This document shows, piece by piece, positions 14,839-33,130 of a stretch of DNA of 64,000 bases. The notes under the pieces are model-generated. The model worked only from the letters and a program-made list of their open reading frames with translations. It had not been told where the DNA came from and made no database searches. The position numbers and the translations under genes were made by a program. The stretch spans positions 64,001-128,000 of IMG/VR virus record IMGVR_UViG_3300027708_000022, one strand, 5' to 3'. The first letter of the stretch is position 1; each line of letters opens with the position of its first letter. The stretch comes from a virus.

Positions 14839-14915
14839 TGGTACGGATGACGGGACTCGAACCCGTAGAACCTTAATTTTAAGTCAAGTATGTAAACCAA
14901 TTCCATCACATCCGC
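14839..14915 (-). tRNA. tRNA-Leu(TAA), short variable arm
   Basis: CTTGA-CTTAAAA-TTAAG; GTTCGAGTC; CCA. Confidence 0.88.
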
Positions 14916-14920
14916 ATTAC

Positions 14921-14995
14921 TGGCACCCCCAGCAGGAATCGAACCTACGTTTACCCTTTAGAAGAGGGATGTATTTTCCACTATACTATGGGGGC
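14921..14995 (-). tRNA. tRNA-Arg(TCT)
   Basis: CCCT-CTTCTAA-AGGG; CCA. Confidence 0.9.
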
Positions 14996-15000
14996 ATTAC

Positions 15001-15077
15001 TGGTGCCTCAGGCGGGACTCGAACCCGCAGAATTTCGCTTCTAAGGCGAACACGGCTACCAATTACGTCACCGAGGC
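15001..15077 (-). tRNA. tRNA-Leu(TAG), short variable arm
   Basis: TTCGC-CTTAGAA-GCGAA; CCA. Confidence 0.88.
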
Positions 15078-15078
15078 A

Positions 15079-15312
15079 TTACCTACGCATCTTCCAAGTG
15101 TATTCTTCACCACTTGGGAGTTTTCCATCTTCTACTGAATCAACACCCATCTTACCAACTTGGTTTGGATTCTCACCAACCATAGTGACATAAGAAGCAC
15201 GACCAACATTACGCAAATGGTTAGTTAATGTTAACGCTTCAACCATATCAATGTAATCTTGACTACACGCTTGTCCATTAGGATTTGTCCAATACACTTT
15301 GTACATAATCAC
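15079..15312 (-). CDS. hypothetical protein within tRNA array
   Basis: ENPNQVGKMGVDSV.DGKLPSGEEYTWKMRR. Confidence 0.6.
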   Translation of the reverse strand: MIMYKVYWTNPNGQACSQDYIDMVEALTLTNHLRNVGRASYVTMVGENPNQVGKMGVDSVEDGKLPSGEEYTWKMRR

Positions 15313-15325
15313 CTTATATAATACT

Positions 15326-15401
15326 TGGTGCTGCCCACAGGAATCGAACCTGTTTCAACGGTTCTTCAAACCGCCGCTATGACCACATCAGCTAGAGCAG
15401 C
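15326..15401 (-). tRNA. tRNA-Phe(GAA)
   Basis: GCGGT-TTGAAGA-ACCGT; CCA. Confidence 0.9.
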
Positions 15402-15407
15402 ATAACT

Positions 15408-15482
15408 TGGTACATCGTGACGGGATCGAACCGCCGACAATCTCGGTGTAAGCGAGGAGCTCTACCGCTGAGCTAACGATGC
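15408..15482 (-). tRNA. tRNA-Val(TAC)
   Basis: CTCG-CTTACAC-CGAG; CCA. Confidence 0.9.
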
Positions 15483-15494
15483 ATTAATTCACTT

Positions 15495-15568
15495 TGGGGT
15501 GACTACTGGGAGTTGAACCCAGACTAGCAGAATCACAAACTGCGTTGCTACCGTTACAACATAGTCAC
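15495..15568 (-). tRNA. tRNA-His(GTG)
   Basis: Loop TTGTGAT, C discriminator, CCA. Confidence 0.88.
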
Positions 15569-15623
15569 ACCAAAATGAATTAACATTTTGGACTTGGTGT
15601 TGCGTACACCAAGTAAAACGATA

Positions 15624-17030
15624 TTAGACCTTGTATCGGTCAGACATAATGGCTTTCAACATGATAGCTTCTGGAGTAAACTCTGAAGTATCTGCTGCAA
15701 GAATTGCTTTAACGATTGAAGGACTGAACCCTGAAACCAAAGCAACACCTGATTCATCATGCTTAACAGGTACGTTATCTGATGAATTGATATTCCAAAA
15801 AACAACTTTAGGAACTTCATAGCCATTTGAGGCGAATTGACGAGCAATCATCTCCATGGCCGAATCATCATGTTCTACGCAAGCATTGAATTGCATATCA
15901 GACAGAATCAACAGCATTGATGGCATATCTTCCTGTGGTACTTTGCCTTTTACAGCAACATTTAAAATCTTCATCATGGCTTTCACCAAGTCAGTAGACA
16001 TACCCCATTCGGATCTAACCATTTGATCCATCTTCTGAATGACATTACCTTTTAGGTTAAGCAATTGCGGATCACTTGAGAATGTTAAAAAGGTGTCTTT
16101 GAAAACTCCTTTGTTCTTATCTGCAAGGTATAGACCAAGAGATACAGAAACATCCATACATGATACTGAACTGTTACGACCAGCAGGGCATGACATAGAA
16201 CCAGAAACGTCAACTAAAGGTAATACATTCGCATCACCAACAAAATTCTCTAAAGCATCCCATTGGGCTACAATGTGGTCTTTTTCGGTTTTGTTGTATG
16301 AACCGTATGCTACGCCTTTCAATACATCATAAGGGAATACTGCACCAGCATTCACCTTAACTTTTGGATCGGTACCTTTAACCAATTCAGCCACATACTC
16401 CGCAAACTTTTCAGTATTACGGTAGAATGCTTTCTTGTAACGGCTAGCCGCCAAAGAAGGCACATGACTGAAATTGATGTTATCCCAATCCTTAGCACAC
16501 ATTTGAGATTCTACCACTTTAGTCATTTCAACCAAAGACTTACGATAGAACTTAGGTGTCATGCCGAAGAACTCACGCAATTCACGAGCAACTTCACCTT
16601 TGCGGGGTGTCCATTTTGCCGCCAATCCGTTTTTAGCTCTCAGAGCATCACCAAGCAAAGTGTATGCTTGTGACTTCAATTCAGAAGTCTGGAAAACAAA
16701 TAGGTCATCCCAACGACCAACTTCAGGTACTTTCCCAAGTAGCTTCATTGCCAAATCAGGACGATTGGTTTCCAAATACTTCAGAATCTGGCGAAACAAC
16801 TCACGCTCGCCAGCGCCACCACGAACATCACGAGACCATAAGGCAACTCGCAATGCTAATTCTTCATCCTGCACCAAAGCAGAAACGAAGTCAGCTGTGA
16901 TATCTTTACCGCGGCTGGCACCGATTTTATAGAACAAATCAACTACAGCATTAGCAGTAGATTTGCGAGCTTTCATACCATTGTCGGTACGAGCTTCTTG
17001 ATTTTGAACTGCGTTTACAAATGAATTCAT
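15624..17030 (-). CDS. TROVE/Ro60-related protein (DUF2828-like) with C-terminal vWA domain
   Basis: RDVRGGAGER, GRWDDL, AAKWTPR, VPSLA in the helical part; MIDAS motif VDVSGSM, ILSDMQF, VFWN, SGFSP. Confidence 0.8.
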   Translation of the reverse strand: MNSFVNAVQNQEARTDNGMKARKSTANAVVDLFYKIGASRGKDITADFVSALVQDEELALRVALWSRDVRGGAGERELFRQILKYLETNRPDLAMKLLGKVPEVGRWDDLFVFQTSELKSQAYTLLGDALRAKNGLAAKWTPRKGEVARELREFFGMTPKFYRKSLVEMTKVVESQMCAKDWDNINFSHVPSLAASRYKKAFYRNTEKFAEYVAELVKGTDPKVKVNAGAVFPYDVLKGVAYGSYNKTEKDHIVAQWDALENFVGDANVLPLVDVSGSMSCPAGRNSSVSCMDVSVSLGLYLADKNKGVFKDTFLTFSSDPQLLNLKGNVIQKMDQMVRSEWGMSTDLVKAMMKILNVAVKGKVPQEDMPSMLLILSDMQFNACVEHDDSAMEMIARQFASNGYEVPKVVFWNINSSDNVPVKHDESGVALVSGFSPSIVKAILAADTSEFTPEAIMLKAIMSDRYKV

Positions 17031-17049
17031 AATATTACTTCCTCAATTT

Positions 17050-17101
17050 AACAGGTTAACTTTTTCAAGTTGGCTTTGAATTTTATTGCTGAACTTAACC
17101 T
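17050..17101 (-). ncRNA. CAGCAA-motif small RNA, copy 1
   Basis: AGGTTAA-GTT-CAGCAA...TTAACCT-GTT. Confidence 0.55.
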
Positions 17102-17107
17102 AAAAAC

Positions 17108-17206
17108 AACAGGATGGTTTCTACTTTTTGTTTTTCAAGTGAGAAAATCGAAACTCACTATCCGATGGCGATTTTACCCGCCGAGTATTTTTGCTGCACC
17201 CATCCT
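17108..17206 (-). ncRNA. CAGCAA-motif small RNA, copy 2
   Basis: AGGATGG-GTG-CAGCAA...CCATCCT-GTT with two internal hairpins. Confidence 0.55.
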
Positions 17207-17212
17207 AAACCT

Positions 17213-17286
17213 TGGAGCGAGATATCAGAATCGAACTGATAACAACAGATTGGAAATCTATAGTTTTACCATTAAACTAATCTCGC
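17213..17286 (-). tRNA. tRNA-Gly(TCC)
   Basis: ATAGA-TTTCCAA-TCTGT; CCA. Confidence 0.9.
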
Positions 17287-17295
17287 CTACTTAAA

Positions 17296-17772
17296 CTATG
17301 CTGCTTTATCTAATACGAATTTTAAACGATCCGCAGCGAAAGATGCGGCAAACGCTTGAGGTTTTACCAGAGGGATAACATTACACATACCTCTAATATA
17401 CCCAACTGCCTCATTGATAACGCATGAACTACCGTGCATTTCATCAGGATTAATATCCAAATGTACCTCAACATCACGGTCTTCCAAAACGTCTTTTAAC
17501 TTCAAATATAATTCGGCAATTTTATATACTTCCGTCATTAATCTCATTCTTGGTTTATCTTTTCTTTGATCCCAATCTCTTTCAGTTTGGACTTCACCAA
17601 AGATTTTACAACCATTCTTACCATTAATATGTACTACAATAGCTAAAGTGTAATCAGCATACCAATCTTTACCAATGAGGAAACGAGCCGAGTCCGCACC
17701 GATATAAATCTTAGTCTCAGGACTTTGTGCTTCAATAAACTCTTTCACTTCATTAACATCAATCTTACGCAT
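17296..17772 (-). CDS. RNase H-like YkuK family protein
   Basis: IYIGADS, RLMTEV, VHLDIN, VKPQAFAASFAADR. Confidence 0.75.
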   Translation of the reverse strand: MRKIDVNEVKEFIEAQSPETKIYIGADSARFLIGKDWYADYTLAIVVHINGKNGCKIFGEVQTERDWDQRKDKPRMRLMTEVYKIAELYLKLKDVLEDRDVEVHLDINPDEMHGSSCVINEAVGYIRGMCNVIPLVKPQAFAASFAADRLKFVLDKAA

Positions 17773-17795
17773 GATTACTACTCCTTTTAAAAACT

Positions 17796-17869
17796 TGGAG
17801 CGGGTAGAGAGAATCGAACTCTCAAATATTCCTTGGCAAGGAATTAGGTTACCTTTACATCATACCCGC
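17796..17869 (-). tRNA. tRNA-Gly(GCC)
   Basis: ATTCC-TTGCCAA-GGAAT; CCA. Confidence 0.9.
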
Positions 17870-17875
17870 ATAACT

Positions 17876-17950
17876 TGGCACCGCCCGAAGGATTCGAACC
17901 CTCACCAGCTGATTTGGAGTCAGTTGTGCTGCCGTTGACACTAGAGCGAT
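17876..17950 (-). tRNA. tRNA-Trp(CCA)
   Basis: CTGA-CTCCAAA-TCAG; CCA. Confidence 0.9.
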
Positions 17951-17957
17951 ATAATAC

Positions 17958-18020
17958 AACAGGATAGATTTTAACGGTTTTGATTAGAAGTCAAATGTTT
18001 TAATTTGCTGTTACTATCCT
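17958..18020 (-). ncRNA. CAGCAA-motif small RNA, copy 3
   Basis: AGGATAG-TAA-CAGCAA...TTTGA-CTTCTAA-TCAAA...CTATCCT-GTT. Confidence 0.6.
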
Positions 18021-18025
18021 AAAAC

Positions 18026-18102
18026 TGGTACAGAGTATTGGGCTTGAACCAATGACCTACGCCTTATCAAGACGTTGCTACTACCAACTGAGCTAACTCT
18101 GC
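18026..18102 (-). tRNA. tRNA-Ile(GAT)
   Basis: ACGTC-TTGATAA-GGCGT; CCA. Confidence 0.9.
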
Positions 18103-18111
18103 ATTAATACT

Positions 18112-18186
18112 TGGAAGGTCCTGAAGGAATCAAACCTTCACTTTTTCGTTCGTAGCGAAATGTAATATTCATTTTACTAAGGACCT
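18112..18186 (-). tRNA. tRNA-Arg(ACG)
   Basis: TTTCG-CTACGAA-CGAAA; T-loop TTTGATT; CCA. Confidence 0.85.
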
Positions 18187-18192
18187 AAAACT

Positions 18193-18269
18193 TGGTGGTG
18201 AAAGTAGGATTCGAACCTACGACCGTTACCGTATGAAGGTACTGCTCTACCAAACTAAGCTACATCACC
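18193..18269 (-). tRNA. tRNA-Met(CAT), probably elongator
   Basis: TACC-TTCATAC-GGTA; CCA. Confidence 0.85.
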
Positions 18270-18282
18270 ATAATGTTCTTTG

Positions 18283-18357
18283 TCTGGATAGTAGGATTTG
18301 AACCTACAGCCTCCTCGTTCCAAACAAGGCCGTCTACCAGATTGACAATATACCCAG
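18283..18357 (-). tRNA. tRNA-Pro(TGG)
   Basis: CCTTG-TTTGGAA-CGAGG; no encoded CCA; flanking inverted repeat. Confidence 0.88.
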
Positions 18358-18379
18358 ACAAAGAACACTACCTAAAAAA

Positions 18380-18454
18380 TGGTGGACCGTGAGAGAATCG
18401 AACTCTCAATTTCTGGTTGCAAACCAGATGTGTTCCCATTAGCACTAACAGCCC
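18380..18454 (-). tRNA. tRNA-Ala(TGC)
   Basis: TCTGG-TTTGCAA-CCAGA; G3:U70; CCA. Confidence 0.9.
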
Positions 18455-18461
18455 TCTAAAC

Positions 18462-18518
18462 AACAGGATGGAATTTTCTTTTTATCAATAAAAGTTTTTT
18501 TGTTGCTGTTACCATCCT
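18462..18518 (-). ncRNA. CAGCAA-motif small RNA, copy 4
   Basis: AGGATGG-TAA-CAGCAA...CCATCCT-GTT. Confidence 0.55.
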
Positions 18519-18524
18519 AAAACT

Positions 18525-18608
18525 TGATGCGTCAGGTAGGGATCGAACCTACTTGTCCTAAAACCACGGGGTTACAGCCCGCTGCCCTGCCATTAGAGCA
18601 TCCAACGC
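18525..18608 (-). tRNA. tRNA-Tyr(GTA)
   Basis: GCGGG-CTGTAAC-CCCGT; long variable arm; ends TCA. Confidence 0.88.
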
Positions 18609-18616
18609 ATTAAAAC

Positions 18617-18691
18617 TGGCTCCGTGATTAGGAATCGAACCTAACTATGACAAATTAACAGTTTGCTCCCACACCTTGCGGGTCTCACGGA
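18617..18691 (-). tRNA. tRNA-Asn(GTT)
   Basis: GCAAA-CTGTTAA-TTTGT; CCA. Confidence 0.88.
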
Positions 18692-19230
18692 ATTATTTTT
18701 TTCAATCTCTTTCTTATCGCTGTATCCGAAATATTTAACTTTTCAGCCACATTAATTATAGTATCATTCTTTAATAATTCTGTTAAATCTATATTATCCC
18801 AATCTACTTTAAATTTTGATTTAGAAGAACAAGATAAAGAACAATATTTATTGAACAATGGTTTATCTTTTTCACAAACAGGACATGAATCCATTTCAGT
18901 TAGTTTTTCTTGTTTATAACTTGTAAAATTTTCATCAAATTTTGTATAATCTTCAGGCATTTTTACAATATCACTATGAACCTCACTATGACAATTATGA
19001 CATAATAAAATGCATTTTCTCAATTCTTCAACAATAGATAACCAATTTTTAGGATTTGCTCGTATTGCTCCAAAAGATAATTCTTTCATGTTTGGGTCTA
19101 TATGGTGTAGGGCTAAAGCACTATCACATTTATTATATCCACATATTTGACAACAATTTCCCATAGACTCTATTATTCGTTTTTTGGTATTTTGTCGCCA
19201 TCTTTTTACTGCTTCTGAATTTTTACTCAT
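18685..19230 (-). CDS. HNH endonuclease
   Basis: CQICGY..C...L.LHHIDP...ELRKCILLCHNCHSEVH; TATAAATA late promoter at 19264-19271. Confidence 0.8.
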   Translation of the reverse strand: MSKNSEAVKRWRQNTKKRIIESMGNCCQICGYNKCDSALALHHIDPNMKELSFGAIRANPKNWLSIVEELRKCILLCHNCHSEVHSDIVKMPEDYTKFDENFTSYKQEKLTEMDSCPVCEKDKPLFNKYCSLSCSSKSKFKVDWDNIDLTELLKNDTIINVAEKLNISDTAIRKRLKKIIP

Positions 19231-19293
19231 AAAACCTCTGTTTTAAAAATTAACTTAATTTGTTATTTATAATTTTAAGGTTTTATAAAAACT

Positions 19294-19370
19294 TGGTTGC
19301 GGAGTCCTGGATTCGAACCAGGGGTCTACAGCTTATGAGGCTGCCGGGATGACCTCTTCCCTAACCCGCA
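19294..19370 (-). tRNA. tRNA-Met(CAT), initiator-like
   Basis: TGCGGG.../CCGCAACCA acceptor; GCAGC-CTCATAA-GCTGT. Confidence 0.82.
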
Positions 19371-19379
19371 ATTAAAACT

Positions 19380-19497
19380 TGGTGTCGCACTCAGGATTCG
19401 AACCTGAACCACTTCCTTTTCGATGGAATTTTGGTATGCTGTTTATATTCTTGTCAGAATACGTTAATAAGTGTGCTACCGTTTACACCAATGCGAC
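19380..19497 (-). ncRNA. tRNA-like RNA with the anticodon arm replaced by a ~60-nt domain
   Basis: Acceptor GTCGCAT/GTGCGAC-ACCA, D arm GTGTAAACGGTAGCAC and T arm TCAGGTTCGAATCCTGA are intact; no canonical anticodon loop. Confidence 0.75.
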
Positions 19498-19506
19498 ATT
19501 AAAACT

Positions 19507-19580
19507 TGGTGCCCTATGACAGAATCGAACTGCCGTGACCTGATTACAAAACAGGTGTAATACCATTATACTAATAGGGC
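19507..19580 (-). tRNA. tRNA-Thr(TGT)
   Basis: Loop TTTGTAA; CCA. Confidence 0.9.
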
Positions 19581-19586
19581 GAAACT

Positions 19587-19661
19587 TGGCGACTCATGGG
19601 AGAATCGAACTCCCGTAACAGGATAGACAATCCCGTGTAATAACCATTATACTAATGAGCC
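19587..19661 (-). tRNA. tRNA-Asp(GTC)
   Basis: CGGGA-TTGTCTA-TCCTG; CCA. Confidence 0.9.
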
Positions 19662-19737
19662 ATATTGAAATACACTATACGGGTCTACGTCCCGTGGCAC
19701 TTTAGACTTTCATTGCCTATAAATGTACTTCAATATG
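19661..19737. repeat. element bounded by CATATTGAARTACA...TGTACTTCAATATG inverted repeats, copy 1
   Basis: Same termini at 20954-21029 and 31258-31371. Confidence 0.75.
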
Positions 19738-19742
19738 ACAAC

Positions 19743-19816
19743 TGGTGGGGGCACAGAGAATCGAACTCTGATAGACCGGTTAAAAGCCGGATATTCTACC
19801 TTTGAATTATACCCCC
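19743..19816 (-). tRNA. tRNA-Lys(TTT)
   Basis: CCGG-CTTTTAA-CCGG; CCA. Confidence 0.9.
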
Positions 19817-19873
19817 AAAAGTTTGTCACTCTTGTCACTATCCATGACAATACTCCTATAAAAACAAACAATA

Positions 19874-19948
19874 TGGTACACCGTATGGGTTACGATCCCA
19901 TCTAGCCACCTTGAAAGGGTGGTGACCTCACCAGAAGTCTAACGGTGC
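19874..19948 (-). tRNA. tRNA-Glu(TTC)
   Basis: CCACC-CTTTCAA-GGTGG; CCA. Confidence 0.88.
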
Positions 19949-19955
19949 ATTAAAA

Positions 19956-20034
19956 TTTACTACTCTAATTTTTAAAGAACATCACTGCATTTCTTACTAT
20001 GTGTCCATTATACATGAACCACTTGGTAAGTCAA
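19956..20034 (-). promoter_or_regulatory. internal tRNA-operon promoter with boxA-like leader
   Basis: TTGACT-16-TATAAT (20034-20007) then TGTTCTTTAAAAA; a 27-nt stretch identical to 21107-21133. Confidence 0.75.
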
Positions 20035-20078
20035 CAACTAATTTTATTGTTGCCTAAACAACACTAAAGCTACCTTAC

Positions 20079-20156
20079 TGGAAGTGCGAGTCAGATTTGA
20101 ACTGACGATTTTACGGGTTTGCAATCCGTTGCTTTTGACCACTCAGCCATCGCACT
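20079..20156 (-). tRNA. tRNA-Cys(GCA)
   Basis: Loop TTGCAAA; U discriminator; CCA. Confidence 0.88.
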
Positions 20157-20164
20157 ATTAAAAA

Positions 20165-20251
20165 TGGCGGGTAGTATAGGATTCGAACCTATGCACCTTT
20201 ACGGTGGACGGCTTAGCAAGCCGCTGCCTTCGACCACTCAGCCAACTACCC
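20165..20251 (-). tRNA. tRNA-Ser(GCT)
   Basis: GCGGC-TTGCTAA-GCCGT; long variable arm; CCA. Confidence 0.9.
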
Positions 20252-20842
20252 ATTTCCGTTACTAAAACCTACCTTACCGCCTTGTGCTTCAATTCTCTTA
20301 ATTACATCTTCAAAAAGAATCGGTGCAAAATCTGTTTGTTCAACGCATACACAATGATAACGAGGATCAATTTCCGTTTCGCTGTAGATAATTTCTCCAG
20401 TCGGATAATTAATACCTTTCGCCTTCATAACACGATTCGTATGGAGGTGTCCATGAATGTTTACACCAAATCTTCCAAGATTTTCTGGATGAAGTGGAAT
20501 ATGGCTAAGAATCATTCCGTTCATTACATGATAAGCACGAAGCTCTCTGAAATGTTCACGATATTCATCATCTTTAAAAATATCATGGTTACCACGAATA
20601 AGAACTTTGTCACCATTAAGTCTACGCATAATACCAAGGCTTTTGCGTTTCATCACTACGTCACCAAGGTGATATACTTTATCGTTCTTTCCTACTCTTT
20701 CGTTCCAGAGTTTGACCATCGCTTCATCCATTTCATCAGGATCAGTCCATGGTCTAATCTTAACTCCGGTATCTTGGTGTGTAAAACGACATACACCAGC
20801 GTGTCCAAAATGTGTGTCGCTAACAAGAAATACTGCTGGCAT
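20246..20842 (-). CDS. calcineurin-like metallophosphoesterase
   Basis: SDTHFGH, HLGD, GNHD, SHIP, HGHLH. Confidence 0.9.
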   Translation of the reverse strand: MPAVFLVSDTHFGHAGVCRFTHQDTGVKIRPWTDPDEMDEAMVKLWNERVGKNDKVYHLGDVVMKRKSLGIMRRLNGDKVLIRGNHDIFKDDEYREHFRELRAYHVMNGMILSHIPLHPENLGRFGVNIHGHLHTNRVMKAKGINYPTGEIIYSETEIDPRYHCVCVEQTDFAPILFEDVIKRIEAQGGKVGFSNGNG

Positions 20843-20861
20843 ATTAGTCTCCTATAAAATA

Positions 20862-20954
20862 TGGCGGGCGGCAGAGGAGTCGAACCCCATCCCCATTACA
20901 GAGAACCTGGTTTTCAAGGCCAGTCGCAGGACCATCCCCGCTGCATTACCACCC
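20862..20954 (-). tRNA. tRNA-Ser(TGA), 8/4-type fold
   Basis: Loop CTTGAAA; 8-bp acceptor GGGTGGTA/TGCCGCCC; 4-bp T stem; long variable arm; GCCA end. Confidence 0.8.
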
Positions 20955-21029
20955 ATATTGAAGTACACTCCTGATTCTGTTCGATAAAACAGAATGTTGG
21001 CTAGCCTACCTGAAATGTACTTCAATATG
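20954..21029. repeat. CATATTGAAGTACA inverted-repeat element, copy 2
   Basis: Fills the whole gap between tRNA-Gln and tRNA-Ser. Confidence 0.75.
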
Positions 21030-21101
21030 GCAGCGGTACTTGGGATCGAACCAAGGATAACGGATTCAAAATCCATCGTGATACCATTTCACTATACCGC
21101 A
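21028..21101 (-). tRNA. tRNA-Gln(TTG)
   Basis: ATGGA-TTTTGAA-TCCGT; CCA. Confidence 0.9.
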
Positions 21102-21106
21102 ACATA

Positions 21107-21181
21107 TTTACTACTCTAATTTTTAAAGAACATTTATTTCTTACTATAGGTCCATTATACACGAACCACTTAATAAGTCAA
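21107..21181 (-). promoter_or_regulatory. tRNA-operon promoter with boxA-like leader
   Basis: TTGACT(21181-21176)-16-TATAAT(21159-21154); TGTTCTTTAAAAA at 21132-21120. Confidence 0.75.
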
Positions 21182-21216
21182 CAACTATTTACAGTCTGTC
21201 GTTTTTACACAACATC

Positions 21217-21254
21217 AAAACAAAAACCCTAGAAACTTTCGTTTACTAGGGTTT
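21217..21254 (-). terminator. intrinsic terminator (candidate attenuator)
   Basis: AAACCCTAG-T-AAAC-GAAA-GTTT-CTAGGGTTT followed by TTGTTTT. Confidence 0.8.
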
Positions 21255-21281
21255 GTGATGAATTAGATTTTATCTAATATA

Positions 21282-21410
21282 CTACGTTACACAAACCCCA
21301 TTTGATCCAATAAAGCCGCTATTCTCATTTTTTGATGAGCGATAATCGGCCGGCCATGTCGCTAACGACTGGCATCTTGGTGTTGAGAGTGTATGTATAG
21401 TTTTCATCAT
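21282..21410 (-). CDS. candidate attenuator leader peptide containing all 20 amino acids
   Basis: MMKTIHTLSTPRCQSLATWPADYRSSKNENSGFIGSNGVCVT*; 3' end complementary to the terminator 5' arm. Confidence 0.7.
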   Translation of the reverse strand: MMKTIHTLSTPRCQSLATWPADYRSSKNENSGFIGSNGVCVT

Positions 21411-21416
21411 AGTCCT

Positions 21417-21445
21417 AGTATATATGCTTTTTGTTCTGCGGTCAA
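21417..21445 (-). promoter_or_regulatory. sigma70 promoter giving a probable leaderless leader-peptide mRNA
   Basis: TTGACC(21445-21440)-17-TATACT(21422-21417); 6 nt to the ATG at 21410. Confidence 0.72.
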
Positions 21446-27800: not shown

Positions 27801-30800
27801 TACTGGCTCAATTGATTCAATATCAAAAAGCCACACACAAGCTTCTTCTCCGTTAAACACAACTCCAAGAGTCAATTTCACCGCCAGTCGCAGAGCATCA
27901 CCATCATCGGTTAATGGATTCCAAAACTTCTTTTCTTTTGTGTGTTTTTCTCCAATGATTAGGCCAATCCAAAGGTCGTCTGCGTTTACTGATTGCGCCT
28001 TTACGTTTAAGCCAGCAGACTTAGCTGCAAGTTCTAGCAGTTCTTGGTCTGTCATTTCGTCACCTCGTCTAGTGCGTAGAGTGGTCGGTATCTTAAATAA
28101 CTAGGCAAATCATTTGGTTCTAAGTATGAAAGCGCTTGTCCACTTGCAAACTTCAAAGCAAATGTTTCCCACGCCACAGGCTTCAACTCCCGCAACTCAC
28201 GGGCTGCGGCAAGGGCTTTTTCTACAATGTGATACTGAAAGTTTGCTTTATCAGAATTGTCTGACGCAAACTCTAAAGCTGCGATAATTGTTTCAATCTT
28301 GTTCATGTGTTTTTTCCCATCAATCCTTTGCCAAGTCGGGCTTTTTCCATTCCACGCCTGTCCTGTTTGATGCGCCGTTCGGTAGCCCAATGTTCTTTCA
28401 TTGTGATACCACTGCGATACATTTCCCCGTAACCATTCAAGGTGTCTTTACGTTTGTTCACTTCGCCACCTTTGTTAATGACTCTAGCAGTACCAACGTG
28501 CCTGTCATCACCTCGTAAATATTTTCCAACATTCATTTAGAACCTCTTGCTCTGATTAAATCAGCCAGTCTATAGCATTGTTTATGTAAAATTTCGTTTT
28601 CAGTAACTGGCGCTACCCGGCCTGCATCATCGCATAATTGAGCACAGGCCTCCCGTTCTCTTGCCACAGCCTCAGCTGTTACTAGTTCGGCAAAGCGATC
28701 CAGTTGATCCAGAAGCATTGCATTTTCATGTGCATAGTCCCGTTCATTGTGAAATACAAACCATGCTTTTTCAGCCATACGTTTCAATTGCTCGTATCGT
28801 TCGTTCATTTTAATCCTTTGAGATTAGTGAAGCTAACCAATAGATAATTAAAGTTGTACCAGTACCGGTAACCGTACCGATACAGAGACCAAGAAAAACA
28901 GCTGTTGAAATTTCAGACACATCCATCTCATTTACCTCTAATAGTTTTAATTTTTTCCATGCGCTCATATTCATCACGACAGTCCGCGGAACAGAATGCA
29001 CCTTGCGTAGGTTCTTCACACTCTAAGCACTTACCAGTCTTTTCTGGTACAGCTAAGCGATTCTGCCTAAGCTCATTAATATAAGCCTCGACCTCAACGC
29101 TACTATCTCTAAAGGTTGACATATCTTAACCCTCAAAGTAATCAGAATAGAGTTCCACCAAGCGCTCGCTAGGGAGACCAGAGAGCATATCGGTAGTGAA
29201 ACCGGGAACAAAGCTAAGAACCTCAATCAATTCAGGGCGAGTCATATTTAATCTCCAGAATAACCGTAATCTTCATCGGTACCATAACCGGCAGAAGCCA
29301 TACCAGAATCAAAGTCACCATCCATCGAATCATCAAAGTCCGATTCATCTTCTAAGAGCTCATCGGTATCAATATCACAGGAATCCATGTAATCACTAAA
29401 ATTAACATCATAAGCAATTGGATCCATCTCTTTCAGAATAGCAGAGGGAGAGAATTCAATACCTGCAATAATGACAGGGCCAGATTCATCTAGCATATCA
29501 TCGAAGCTCTCATAGGCTTCTTCCATAGTCTTAATCATACAATGCTCGCTAAAAAGAGGTAAGAGACAAAAAAGGCCACAGTACAGAGTACCAGGCAAAT
29601 AACATCTTCCACAAAACTGTATTTCATAATCTTTCCTTTAGTGATTCAACAGGATCCATTATACACGAACCAAGGCAGGTGTCAAGCTAGACTGTTGTTT
29701 TTAGGCAACACAGATAACTCACGATTATCGGACACATAATCCACATAATGGTTTTCAAGACTAACCCGCTCACGAACTGCACCGTAAACCACGATTGGGT
29801 GATCTAGAACCACACCGTGTTCGACTTCTCCACCGTATTTGACACGGCTGTATTCTACACGACCGGTAATGGGAAACTCTCCCATGTAATGACCTGAAAC
29901 GAACATACCTTCAAGATTCCAATTCATAATCTTTCCTTTAGTTACTGCACAAGTAGCAATCACCGTTTTCGGCATCAACATCAACGACCTGGTACCAGAC
30001 ATATTTAAAACCATAGTGTGATGCCTTGATGAAGTCACAACGATCCTCTGCCTGTGCTTCGGTTGGGTACACACCCAAGATGACACCATCTCCGTTCTCA
30101 AATTCACCACGGACAATGTGTATTAAATTCATTTAACTTCCTTTCTTAACTCAACAGGATCCATTATACACGAACCAGTGGTGGTGTCAAGGACTATCTT
30201 AGCACTAATGTTGTATTTAAGCAACAATGTAATAATCTCAAAGGAACGACACCGTCCATTATACAGTACCCTTTAAAGGTGTCAAGCCCTATATTAGGTA
30301 ATCTTTGTTGTATTTAAGCAACAGTCTACCGCCAGTCAAAGGCATATTCATGCCCCACCAAAGATACATCGACCTTGCCATTGTAGTCCTTAAACAACTT
30401 GGAGAACACCTGGCGAGCTTGAGGTTCACTTGCAAGGACAAACAGAGTACCATTCACAAAGTAAGCCTGACGTTCCTGTTTAAGAACCTTTGCTACTTTG
30501 TCCAAAACGATTTTCTCGAAACCCATTTTTATTCCTTATTCTGACATACTAAAGTAAGCCTGTGCCACCGACTGAAGCATACTGTCAGAGAGACCCAGCT
30601 TATGCTTGATGACTTCAGGTGGTAAACGGAGGTGTAGCAGATTAGCAAACTGCCAAACCAAGTCCTCTGAAACGGTATTGCCTAGTTCTGTATAAGTTTT
30701 CATTCTGTAATTCCTTATTAACTTTATCAACTCAACAGGATCCATTATACACTAACCGAGGCAGGAGTCAAGGACTTTCGGCAAAGCGCTAGCGCCTTGT

Positions 30801-31257
30801 TGTATTTTTGCAACATAAAAGAGGTTGAGTATCCGCCACGTCCATCCCCTTTCGTTCGACAGGTACCATTATACTCGGTACCTGTCTGGTGTCAAGGGTT
30901 ATGTGGAGACTTGTTGCTTGGAAACAACAGGCATAACAGGGTGAGACCGAACAAAGTACAGAGTACAGTCCTCAGAGTTATCCTGTTCCATCTGCTTAGC
31001 GACCAACTCAGCATTACCAAGGTCTGCAAAGGCAAATCGAACCTGCTCTGCATACTCGCCCCCATCATCTAGAGGTGAATTGTCCATGGTATAACGCAGC
31101 ATCACAAGGTGGACTTCATTCATCTTTATTCCTTATTCATACGCATAAGTTTAGCCATGAGCATGGCTGTTTCCAGTTTAGCTTTCAACTCAGCACGAAC
31201 CCTTGCCAGGTCAGCACTCATTTTCTCGGTTTCTTTCATAACAACTCCTTTGTTTAC

Positions 31258-31371
31258 CATATTGAAGTACACTACAACTCTGGCAAGGATGATTTACGCC
31301 TCTAAATTTGGCAACATCATCGGGCTTTCCTAGGAACCCTTTCCAGTCATAAGGTAGTGTACTTCAATATG
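31258..31371. repeat. CATATTGAAGTACACTAC inverted-repeat element, copy 3
   Basis: 18-bp perfect terminal inverted repeat around a structured ~80-nt interior, intergenic. Confidence 0.75.
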
Positions 31372-31406
31372 AGGTCTGGTATCCGCCAGACCTTGCGGTC
31401 AACAAC

Positions 31407-31727
31407 TTATGCTGCGAGCAAGTCAGGCATAACCATCTTAGTCACAACGACCTTAGAAGGCTTCTTAACTGCTTTGCGAACAGCTTTGAGCCCGACAGGT
31501 TTTGCCATCAGCGCATCGAGGCGTGCCTGTGCCTTAGCGATAGCGTTAGCACGTTTCACTTGCACGAGGTCAGCCTTGACCTGTTTAGTGAGTGACTTCT
31601 CAGCACGAGCCTGTTTAACTAAAGCGCTGACAATCAGTTTAGCTTCAGCGGTTTTCTGACGAGCTGCAACAAGAGCGGCACGAGCGGCGACCAATTCGGT
31701 CTGCGAGGGGGTGAGAACTTTTGACAT
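31407..31727 (-). CDS. Ala/Lys-rich basic protein
   Basis: Start MSKVLTP at 31727 after an AAGGAAG RBS; ends ...PDLLAA. Confidence 0.65.
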   Translation of the reverse strand: MSKVLTPSQTELVAARAALVAARQKTAEAKLIVSALVKQARAEKSLTKQVKADLVQVKRANAIAKAQARLDALMAKPVGLKAVRKAVKKPSKVVVTKMVMPDLLAA

Positions 31728-31774
31728 TTTTACTTCCTTAAAAAAGAGAATCAATTAACAGCGTTAGCACTACT

Positions 31775-32121
31775 ACAGGAACCATTATACACGAACCACT
31801 ACCAAAATCAAGCATTATCTGGTATTGTTGTTTTTTAGCAACAGCAGATATGTTGTATTTAAGCAACACTAAACAGGACTCATTTCCGTTAACATTTCGG
31901 AAATATTCATCAAGAGGTCAGCATAGGCGTCCTCATCCAACGCAAGAGCATCAGCATAGGACTCGATCAATTCAGTAATGAGGGACTTCAATTTCGATTC
32001 AGACATTTTTACTTCCTTATCAACTCAACAGGAACCATTATACACGAACCACTACCAAAATCAAGCATTATCTGGTATTGTTGTTTTTTAGCAACAGCAG
32101 ATATGTTGTATTTAAGCAACA
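31775..32121. repeat. 94-nt perfect direct repeat (31775-31868 and 32028-32121) of the promoter cassette
   Basis: acaggaaccattatacacgaaccactaccaaaatcaagc...tgttgtatttaagcaaca occurs twice, flanking a short acidic ORF. Confidence 0.9.
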
Positions 32122-33130
32122 TCAAAAGGTACTGGAAACTTCTTTGCATGGAACTCGATCAAGTCAGCATCGGTCATGCAAGCAACCACAATTGAGTGCA
32201 ACCCAACCGAGGTATCAATTAAATCAAACGCCAGCTTACGGCGCATTTCAGCACTCAGAGGAGCTGTCCTCTGGGTCACCAAGAAATCATCTAAATTCAT
32301 TTTTACTTCCTTTCTTATTCAACAGGATCCATTATACACGAACCATTGCCGGTGTCAAGGACTTTCGAGCATTTGGCTGTTGTATTAAAGCAACATATTG
32401 GCACGGATGGTATCACGAGCCATCCGCATGGTTTTGGCATGAATTGCCTGTACCCTTTGGGTGCATATACCATGCTCTTTTGCCAACTCAGCAAAGGTCA
32501 TGCCGTGAACCTCATGGCCAACTATGATATCAAGCGCACGAGCAGCGAGCTCTTTAGTGAATTGGTGGTCATGCGGGCCACGATGGTAGACTATACGTTG
32601 ATATACCAATCCAAGAGCTTTCTTTTGGTCTATGATATCGTCAAGCATATTACACACCAACCCAGCGGACAGTCTTGAAATTAAACTTAGGGTCAAGGAT
32701 GTTACCACGAGCGAAGTTGGTGGCAGGTGCCTTGTAGGACTTGGCCATCAAGATATCACCGACCTTAAACTTAGGTGTCTCCCGAGCAACGATAAACGAG
32801 TGGACAGAACCTTTGATAACCACTTTGAGGTACTTACTGCCAGCCATCACGACCACACCCTCATTGAACCGCTTCACCATCTCTTGGTGTGCTGATAGAG
32901 GTGCGCTAATGTCAGCATAACTTGCCTTGATGGCCTCTAGGTACTTCTGAATCTGTTCTTTCATCTTTATATCCTTAATCATTCAACAGGTACCATTATA
33001 CACGAACCCTGGTAGGTGTCAAGGTGGTAAAGATGGATGTGCTTAAATACAACAGTTTTTATGTTGTATTTAAGCGACAGATACAGTGTTGTATTTAAGC
33101 AACAAACAGCAGCTTTTTTGGATTTATCGC

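Follow-up and report, generated by a model that had tools for sequence, protein, structure and literature searches.

A putative translated attenuator with a leader of all 20 amino acids ahead of the tRNA array of an uncultured T4-like phage

Why phages carry tRNA genes has been a question for more than 50 years (PMC10264068), and a sensor placed ahead of a tRNA array would record what the phage monitors. The locus described here raises the question of whether a short ORF lying between a promoter and an intrinsic terminator, 5' of such an array, is a sensor of this kind and what it would read. The locus was found in a window of 64,000 nucleotides, which is the whole stretch of DNA analysed, taken from a 162-kb virus record with a completeness of ~95%, a GC content of 36.7% and a T4-type Gp23 capsid gene; the source of the leader is an uncultured T4-like phage. 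An earlier interpretation made from the letters alone (the sequence-only reading) had proposed that a leaderless peptide containing all 20 amino acids gates the array by attenuation and reports on the whole tRNA pool. We regard it as highly probable that the element is a translated attenuator. Its interpretation as a gauge of decoding is well supported by the comparative evidence and remains unproven without experiment, as no RNA, ribosome or reporter data are available.

Promoters, leader ORF and tRNA array of the window

The tRNA array (14839–21101, on the minus strand like the other genes, promoters and RNA elements given below) contains 24 tRNAs called by ARAGORN and a Ser-UGA candidate, represents all 20 amino acids and is interspersed with protein genes; its first tRNA starts at 21101, on the 3' side of the terminator where the sequence-only reading had placed the array. 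The tRNA-Ser(UGA)-like gene (approximately 20953–20864) fell below the default threshold of ARAGORN and had a weak Rfam score; Ser-UGA is kept in relatives. The interspersed genes encode a calcineurin-like phosphoesterase (20842–20246), an HNH endonuclease (19230–18685) that has a late-type motif of its own, ATAAATA, at 19270, an RNase H-like protein (17772–17296) and a DUF2828/DUF7788 protein annotated as “RNA-binding” in PHROG (17030–15624). A WYL_2 Sm-like protein is encoded two genes 5' of the leader (22271–21972) and is often syntenic with the leader in relatives. Long inverted repeats forming stems were seen between or around tRNAs (21020–20955, 18369–18271 and 12542–12444), with 20-bp arms between Pro and Met and perfect 17-bp arms around a lone Met-CAT tRNA. 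In the arrays of two relatives (L155 and L185), ARAGORN called a tRNA whose anticodon, UUA, would read a stop codon.

The leader ORF (21282–21410) has 42 codons, contains all 20 amino acids and ends with a TAG stop at 21284–21282. It is preceded by a sigma70-type promoter, TTGACC-17-TATACT (21417–21445), which was found as the earlier reading had given it and ends 6 nt ahead of the ATG at 21410. The transcription start is therefore inferred to fall at or next to this ATG, giving a leaderless start. The −10 box lies mostly 6–9 nt 5' of the leader ATG in relatives, and no conserved Shine-Dalgarno was found in the spacer between the −10 box and the ATG of these relatives. A T4 late promoter overlapping the window leader was considered and found to be unsupported, the late-type motif of this genome being ATAAATA and CATATATA occurring at only 2 intergenic sites. 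The sole other intergenic GCATATATACT followed by an ATG 6 nt later was located at 707 (minus strand) and resembles the leader promoter. T4 late-promoter-like motifs were observed directly 5' of the leader ATG in L209 (TATAAATA) and L085 (CATAAATA), both without a sigma70 pair. Because these motifs replace the sigma70 pair, some members of the family may run the sensor late in infection.

Downstream of the terminator, motif matching identified a bypass promoter module (21154–21214) made of a palindrome (21214–21197) and a TTGACT-16-TATAAT promoter (21181–21154), the latter being the second promoter on which the earlier reading had based its caveat that the leader is an additional and not the only input. 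This caveat held and can be extended, as a second bypass promoter was found within the array ahead of tRNA-Glu (19967–20034; promoter at 20034–20007 followed by a boxA-like site at 19980–19967). The two bypass promoters share 89% identity and match the consensus at 11 of 12 positions each, compared with 10 of 12 for the leader promoter. Thus, in the window genome the attenuator is one input among three. The palindrome is an imperfect TGTTG-N8-CAACA and is a genome-wide phage motif, not an array-specific one; about 20 such modules are spread across the genome. Palindromes of this type were recorded on the minus strand at 21214–21197, 23456, 24986, 25064, 29710–33104, 12411, 7780, 6972 and elsewhere, and most of them sit shortly 5' of strong sigma70 promoters. 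They are probably operators of a phage regulator, and we infer that the bypass promoters linked to them are probably regulated in time.

An rrn-type boxA-like motif was recognised by sequence match right ahead of the first tRNA (21118–21131). It agrees at 10 of 12 positions with the E. coli boxA consensus UGCUCUUUAACA (taken from PMC13753749) and precedes a long non-coding transcript. The two boxA-like sites of the window (21131–21118 and 19980–19967) each follow one of the bypass promoters, and 19 of the 28 curated loci described below have a boxA-like motif in the stretch that separates the terminator from the first tRNA. These observations suggest Nus-factor antitermination along the long tRNA transcript; this function is inferred from sequence alone. 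The sigma70-type promoters together with the E. coli-like boxA also suggest, by inference, a proteobacterial host.

Mutually exclusive hairpins at the end of the leader and their conservation

The end of the leader ORF carries the 5' strand of an antiterminator (region 2, 21290–21300), which ends 5 nt ahead of the stop codon. The earlier reading had pointed to a complementarity between the last codons and the 5' arm of the terminator, and this was found to be exact: GGGTTTGTG (21298–21290) pairs with CACAAACCC (21257–21249) and the helix extends to 11 bp. The 3' strand of this helix (region 3, 21247–21257) serves in part as 5' arm of an intrinsic terminator (21217–21254), a GAAA-loop hairpin followed by a U-tract with a folding energy of −16.3 kcal/mol (z −6.2) and support from covariation. 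Through the common strand 21257–21247, the antiterminator and the terminator hairpin (21254–21224) are mutually exclusive. A small AU-rich hairpin is predicted by folding inside the antiterminator loop (21262–21278), and inner hairpins of a similar kind occur in many relatives.

The leader was folded with and without the end of the ORF, as the sequence-only reading had proposed. The RNA from region 2 onward adopted the antiterminator (−20.9 kcal/mol), and removal of the ORF end gave the terminator (−19.3 kcal/mol). In a footprint model that assumes a 9-nt footprint 3' of the A site, the antiterminator of the nascent RNA is predicted to form with the ribosome at codons 1–34 and not from codon 35 on, and in the nascent RNA without a ribosome it forms with P 0.83 in the window. 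Geometry and the folding model agree that a ribosome at the stop codon would cover region 2 and one on the sensing codons would leave it free. If full equilibrium is assumed, the terminator prevails in the window genome for almost all positions of the ribosome, and the switch therefore needs co-transcriptional kinetics. A conserved trp-like 1:2 helix acting as anti-antiterminator or pause hairpin had been suspected from single folds, and such a helix is predicted in the full fold of the window leader; it was not supported as a conserved feature, being no better than in shuffles across 28 leaders (Fisher P 0.69). Searches of the leader with Rfam models returned no family at threshold and no T-box; a sub-threshold NsiR1 hit (31 bits against a cut-off of 39) was discarded, its match being to the terminator shape alone.

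The peptide is too short to search with, and loci were therefore fetched mainly through neighbouring genes, using two upstream neighbour proteins that impose no selection for a leader, and separately through DNA patterns. A rule-based finder, which required a first tRNA, a terminator and an ORF with a −10 box just 5' of its ATG, recovered the same layout repeatedly; three loci missed by the finder (L164, L208 and L083) were added by hand, and two false calls (L100 and a second ORF in L211) were excluded. The open frame and the ATG position are kept in the resulting 28 curated loci, 12 of which came from DNA patterns. Outside this set, blastn of the leader against cultured phages gave just tRNA-Gln and chance matches, and no such leader was seen in the inspected array heads of Stenotrophomonas phage DLP_6 and Synechococcus phage BUCT-ZZ01, both reached via the DUF2828 gene; for BUCT-ZZ01, the true array start may fall outside the stretch examined. 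A scan of bacterial genomes yielded five contigs with a leader in L218 only; we infer that this contig probably belongs to a phage and was binned into a MAG.

The ORF strand that complements region 3 did better than shuffles (P ≤ 0.017) in each of the 28 curated leaders; the best partner of region 3 was at the ORF end in every one and terminated between −6 and +1 nt from the stop codon in 25. When the analysis was confined to 17 loci that had not been selected by pattern (the window and 16 neighbour-gene loci), 92% of antiterminator cells were paired, and two-sided changes were found in 5 of the 11 pairs that form the antiterminator and in 5 of the 8 that form the terminator, a result met by 0–1 of 500 shuffles. 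Shuffled and slid controls scored lower than the real alignment for pairing and covariation; the covariation counts are inflated by the kinship of the loci. Thus, the arrangement of ORF, antiterminator, terminator and tRNAs, for which the earlier reading had advised a search in relatives, is kept with compensatory base changes. The comparison of loci demonstrates, as far as sequence can, the parts of the switch, their exclusive pairings and the fixing of region 2 at the stop codon.

Residue content of the leaders and its match to the arrays

The claim that the 42-codon ORF contains all 20 amino acids was confirmed, and this content exceeds what chance would give. All 20 residues occur in 0.54% of the 37,906 coding 42-codon windows of the genome, and together with at least 33 codons in 0.013% of them; they occur in 2% of stop-free shuffles of the leader ORF. 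The leader is also the sole all-20 ORF among 212 ORFs of 36–48 aa in six frames of the genome. Two further features had been put forward as unusual and fared less well: the number of 33 distinct codons is correct and is not exceptional against shuffles (P about 0.11–0.12), and the GC-ending codons (16 of 42 vs 26% genome-wide) show no more than a marginal excess (P = 0.06). Neither codon count nor GC3 was therefore accepted as evidence in its own right. The sampling of different isoacceptor boxes was upheld, as the window leader uses each of the two decoding classes that Ser, Arg, Leu, Ile and Gly have; other long leaders use 7–10 of the same 10 classes, for which no null was computed. The Met-Met start provides an elongator-Met codon. 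The predicted sensing zone, codons 1–34, holds 19 residue types and no Val, which appears in the last codons only, where a stalled ribosome would already mask the antiterminator; Val is therefore probably not sensed. The proposed coverage of the whole tRNA pool thus stands for 19 of 20 residues here and fails for Val, which 14 of 24 leaders, that of the window among them, do not have in their sensing zone.

Among the 16 curated leaders of the neighbour-gene set (window included), 12 of 31–45 aa contain all 20 residues and one contains 19; the remaining three are short with 14–18 types. After clustering of peptides at <60% identity, the full set was present in 12 of 15 clusters and 19 residues in a 13th. 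The shuffle P for residue coverage was 0.3–3% per leader. Alternative frames of the leaders hold 12–19 residue types, so that the all-20 content is limited to the ATG frame. The peptide itself varies among relatives while its all-20 content is retained, a point that the sequence-only reading had wanted tested. Since the antiterminator sequence itself imposes Gly, Val, Cys or Phe on the end of the ORF, the tail was removed before composition was tested, and the remaining sensing zone still had 17–20 types against 13–16 expected (combined P 8e-19 for 17 representatives, an overstated value because these are related and not fully independent).

Cys, Asp, Glu, Trp, Tyr, His, Gly and Phe occur mostly as single copies (Cys in 24 of 24 leaders, Asp in 23, Glu in 22, Trp and Tyr in 21), and their order is permuted among families (HCWDYEF, HFWYCED, CFWEHFDY and HEYCDWF). 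Aligned leader pairs showed 116 non-synonymous and 38 synonymous differences (~3:1). This permutation and the excess of non-synonymous changes demonstrate, at the level of sequence comparison, that selection acts on composition, in favour of one of each residue, and not on the peptide sequence; a codon checklist would fit the leaders better than a folded protein. A caveat to this interpretation is that a central Trp and a Tyr-Arg keep their position in part of the family; single-copy residues were conserved in place only marginally more than multi-copy ones (P 0.05). As a separate observation, 13 of 16 leaders, each from a different family, use GAG for Glu vs 22% in the window genome, although the arrays carry tRNA-Glu(UUC); with this preference, the leader may respond to modification of the wobble base.

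The content of the leader also follows that of the array. The relatives L208 and L085, with 8 and 7 tRNAs, have leaders of only 23–25 codons, in which 16 of 22 (P 0.0004) and 17 of 24 codons (P 0.0008), respectively, specify residues of their own arrays and every array residue is represented. L164 has neither Phe in its leader nor tRNA-Phe in its array, and its relative L209 has both. This matching of leader to array, evident from the compared loci, has exceptions: Leu is present in the L164 leader though no tRNA-Leu was found in the stretch examined, the L048/L049 family combines a full array with a 26-aa leader of 17–18 types, and in L072 an all-20 leader precedes only 6 detected tRNAs. In several relatives with 1–9 tRNAs, the array begins without a leader ahead of it. 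In other phages, L025 and L226, a short leader and a terminator were observed with small tRNA blocks, with weak enrichment in the block residues (P 0.035 and 0.021).

The gap between terminator and first tRNA contained a promoter in 9 of 28 loci (window included) and none in 19, some promoter-free gaps being as short as 9–14 nt. Because these 19 loci lack such a promoter, the attenuator is the predicted main gate to the head of the array in most of the family. Promoters further down inside the array were found in many relatives.

Proposed mechanism, alternatives and known attenuators

We propose that RNA polymerase would start at the leader ATG with a ribosome following it, translation of the leader being inferred. 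If all codons were read promptly, the ribosome would reach the last ~8 codons and cover region 2, and the terminator would form. A shortage of usable tRNA for any residue in codons 1–34 would make the ribosome lag, region 2 would pair with region 3 before the 3' arm of the terminator was made, and transcription would pass through boxA into the array, whose new tRNAs would then close the switch by feedback. Read-through upon stalling, as the earlier reading had it, is supported by the conserved anatomy and the leader–array matching and remains an inference; the trigger, be it nuclease cleavage, starvation or general slowing, has not been shown. We infer that tRNA loss (cleavage, decay or poor host decoding) would be a more useful trigger than amino-acid starvation, because extra tRNA would not cure starvation; this agrees with a role of phage tRNAs against anticodon nucleases (PMC10264068). 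That this ribosome-coupled attenuator works as a broad decoding gauge and is in effective control here is, judging from the sequence evidence, likely. A wider proposal is evenly balanced in our estimate: the leader as a completeness test of the genetic code, in which selection retains roughly one codon each for almost all tRNA classes, so that almost any loss of host tRNA, including that by anticodon nucleases, would induce a full replacement set. The system would then be a tRNA homeostat and at the same time a counter-defence that is inducible and defence-agnostic, and its sensor would be re-spelled when tRNAs enter or leave the array.

An identical architecture would also serve a device that senses only general ribosome speed or the loss of transcription–translation coupling (antibiotics, host shut-off or late infection) without reading codon by codon. 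As the antiterminator forms readily in the absence of a ribosome, any failure of translation would open the switch, and whiB7-type leaders respond to general stalling too (PMC10274678). Such a device leaves unexplained why nearly every residue is present as a single copy in permuted order and why leaders have shrunk to match small arrays, and we consider it unlikely. Quite improbable, in our judgement, is that the attenuator is real in the family and marginal in the window genome, where the promoters at 21181 and 20034 would supply the array and the leader would add little: the leader is intact in the window and its close relatives, the bypass-promoter loci L037, L038, L211 and L212 retain all 20 residues despite high divergence, and the palindrome-linked class of the bypass promoters is, by inference, probably regulated in time. 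These points have to be set against the closer consensus match of the bypass promoters, each with its own boxA, and against the small-array relatives L032/L035, L132 and L159, which have no leader.

Very little credence is left to a functional small protein or arrest peptide, whose residue variety would reflect protein function. The central Trp..Tyr-Arg and an N-terminal His are partly conserved in position, as such a protein would have them, yet the ~3:1 ratio of non-synonymous to synonymous changes, the permuted order, the length range of 23–46 across the family, the lack of any Pfam or NCBIfam match to the leader peptides and a stop codon tied to the antiterminator strand all oppose it. A structured RNA that is not translated, carries the ORF by accident and is switched by a ligand, a small RNA or a protein would account for the stable fold of the whole leader (−58 kcal/mol, z −4.7, terminator included); it would not account for an all-20 content confined to the ATG frame or for the conserved open frame, stop position and ATG position after the −10 box, and with neither an Rfam family at threshold nor a T-box detected we find it hardly credible.

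The decoding gauge that we favour can be compared with the attenuators of amino-acid operons. In trpL, hisL, pheL, thrL and the multivalent ilv leaders, a short ORF is followed by mutually exclusive 2:3 and 3:4 hairpins and a U-tract, and a ribosome at the stop codon masks region 2; the codons that these leaders use for sensing come in runs of one to three types, and their targets are biosynthetic enzymes. The phage leader shares with the trp/his/thr/ilv class the short ORF between promoter and terminator, the exclusive hairpins and the geometry of region 2. It is unlike them in that residues are present singly, a tRNA array follows, the start is probably leaderless and no conserved 1:2 helix is detectable. 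As it lacks clustered control codons for the end product of a biosynthetic or synthetase operon and the downstream genes are tRNAs, it is not a member of the amino-acid operon families, though it works like them in the proposed mechanism. T-box riboswitches need no ribosome and each bind a single uncharged tRNA directly; they resemble the phage leader in that a choice between terminator and antiterminator reports the state of tRNA.

Closer in content is the whiB7 (wblC) uORF attenuator of mycobacteria, where a uORF of broad content likewise precedes an antiterminator/terminator pair and stalling leads to read-through. Only one of the 20 residues is missing from the whiB7 uORF of M. smegmatis, and replacing its sole Trp codon strongly reduces the response to Trp deprivation, so that sensing through a single codon, the most doubtful step of our proposal, has an experimental precedent (PMC10274678). 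The whiB7 uORF differs in that it controls a transcription factor, is Ala-enriched and lacks several residues in some species. The phage leader, with ~40 codons and nearly one of each residue, is phage-borne and has tRNA targets that allow direct feedback; of the whiB7-class features tested in it, the broad-content uORF was present, and a downstream whiB7 gene and Ala enrichment (2 Ala codons of 42) were absent. No sequence relationship between the two is claimed. In Anabaena PCC 7120, the trn operon is a 26-gene tRNA array that, like the phage system, is switched on by translational stress; it is plasmid-borne and controlled at initiation by the DNA-binding repressor TrcR, without control by a leader ORF and terminator (PMC10272220).

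Phage tRNAs have been described as a counter-defence that replaces tRNAs destroyed by host anticodon nucleases (PMC10264068, PMC11555353, PMC11464382), and by analogy this is the likely purpose of the array. Judged by their abstracts, these papers concern the tRNAs themselves and mention no switch triggered by stalling. A literature search, which left subscription journals mostly uncovered, turned up no report of tRNA genes being attenuated through a leader peptide. That the leader covers almost the whole code suggests an insurance against losing tRNAs and not a fixed compensation for a few codons. The principle of the trp-type and whiB7 attenuators is known, and its application to tRNA genes is without precedent in the literature covered; if the proposal is true, it extends attenuation to direct feedback on tRNA genes by a compact (~200 nt) sensor of decoding failure.
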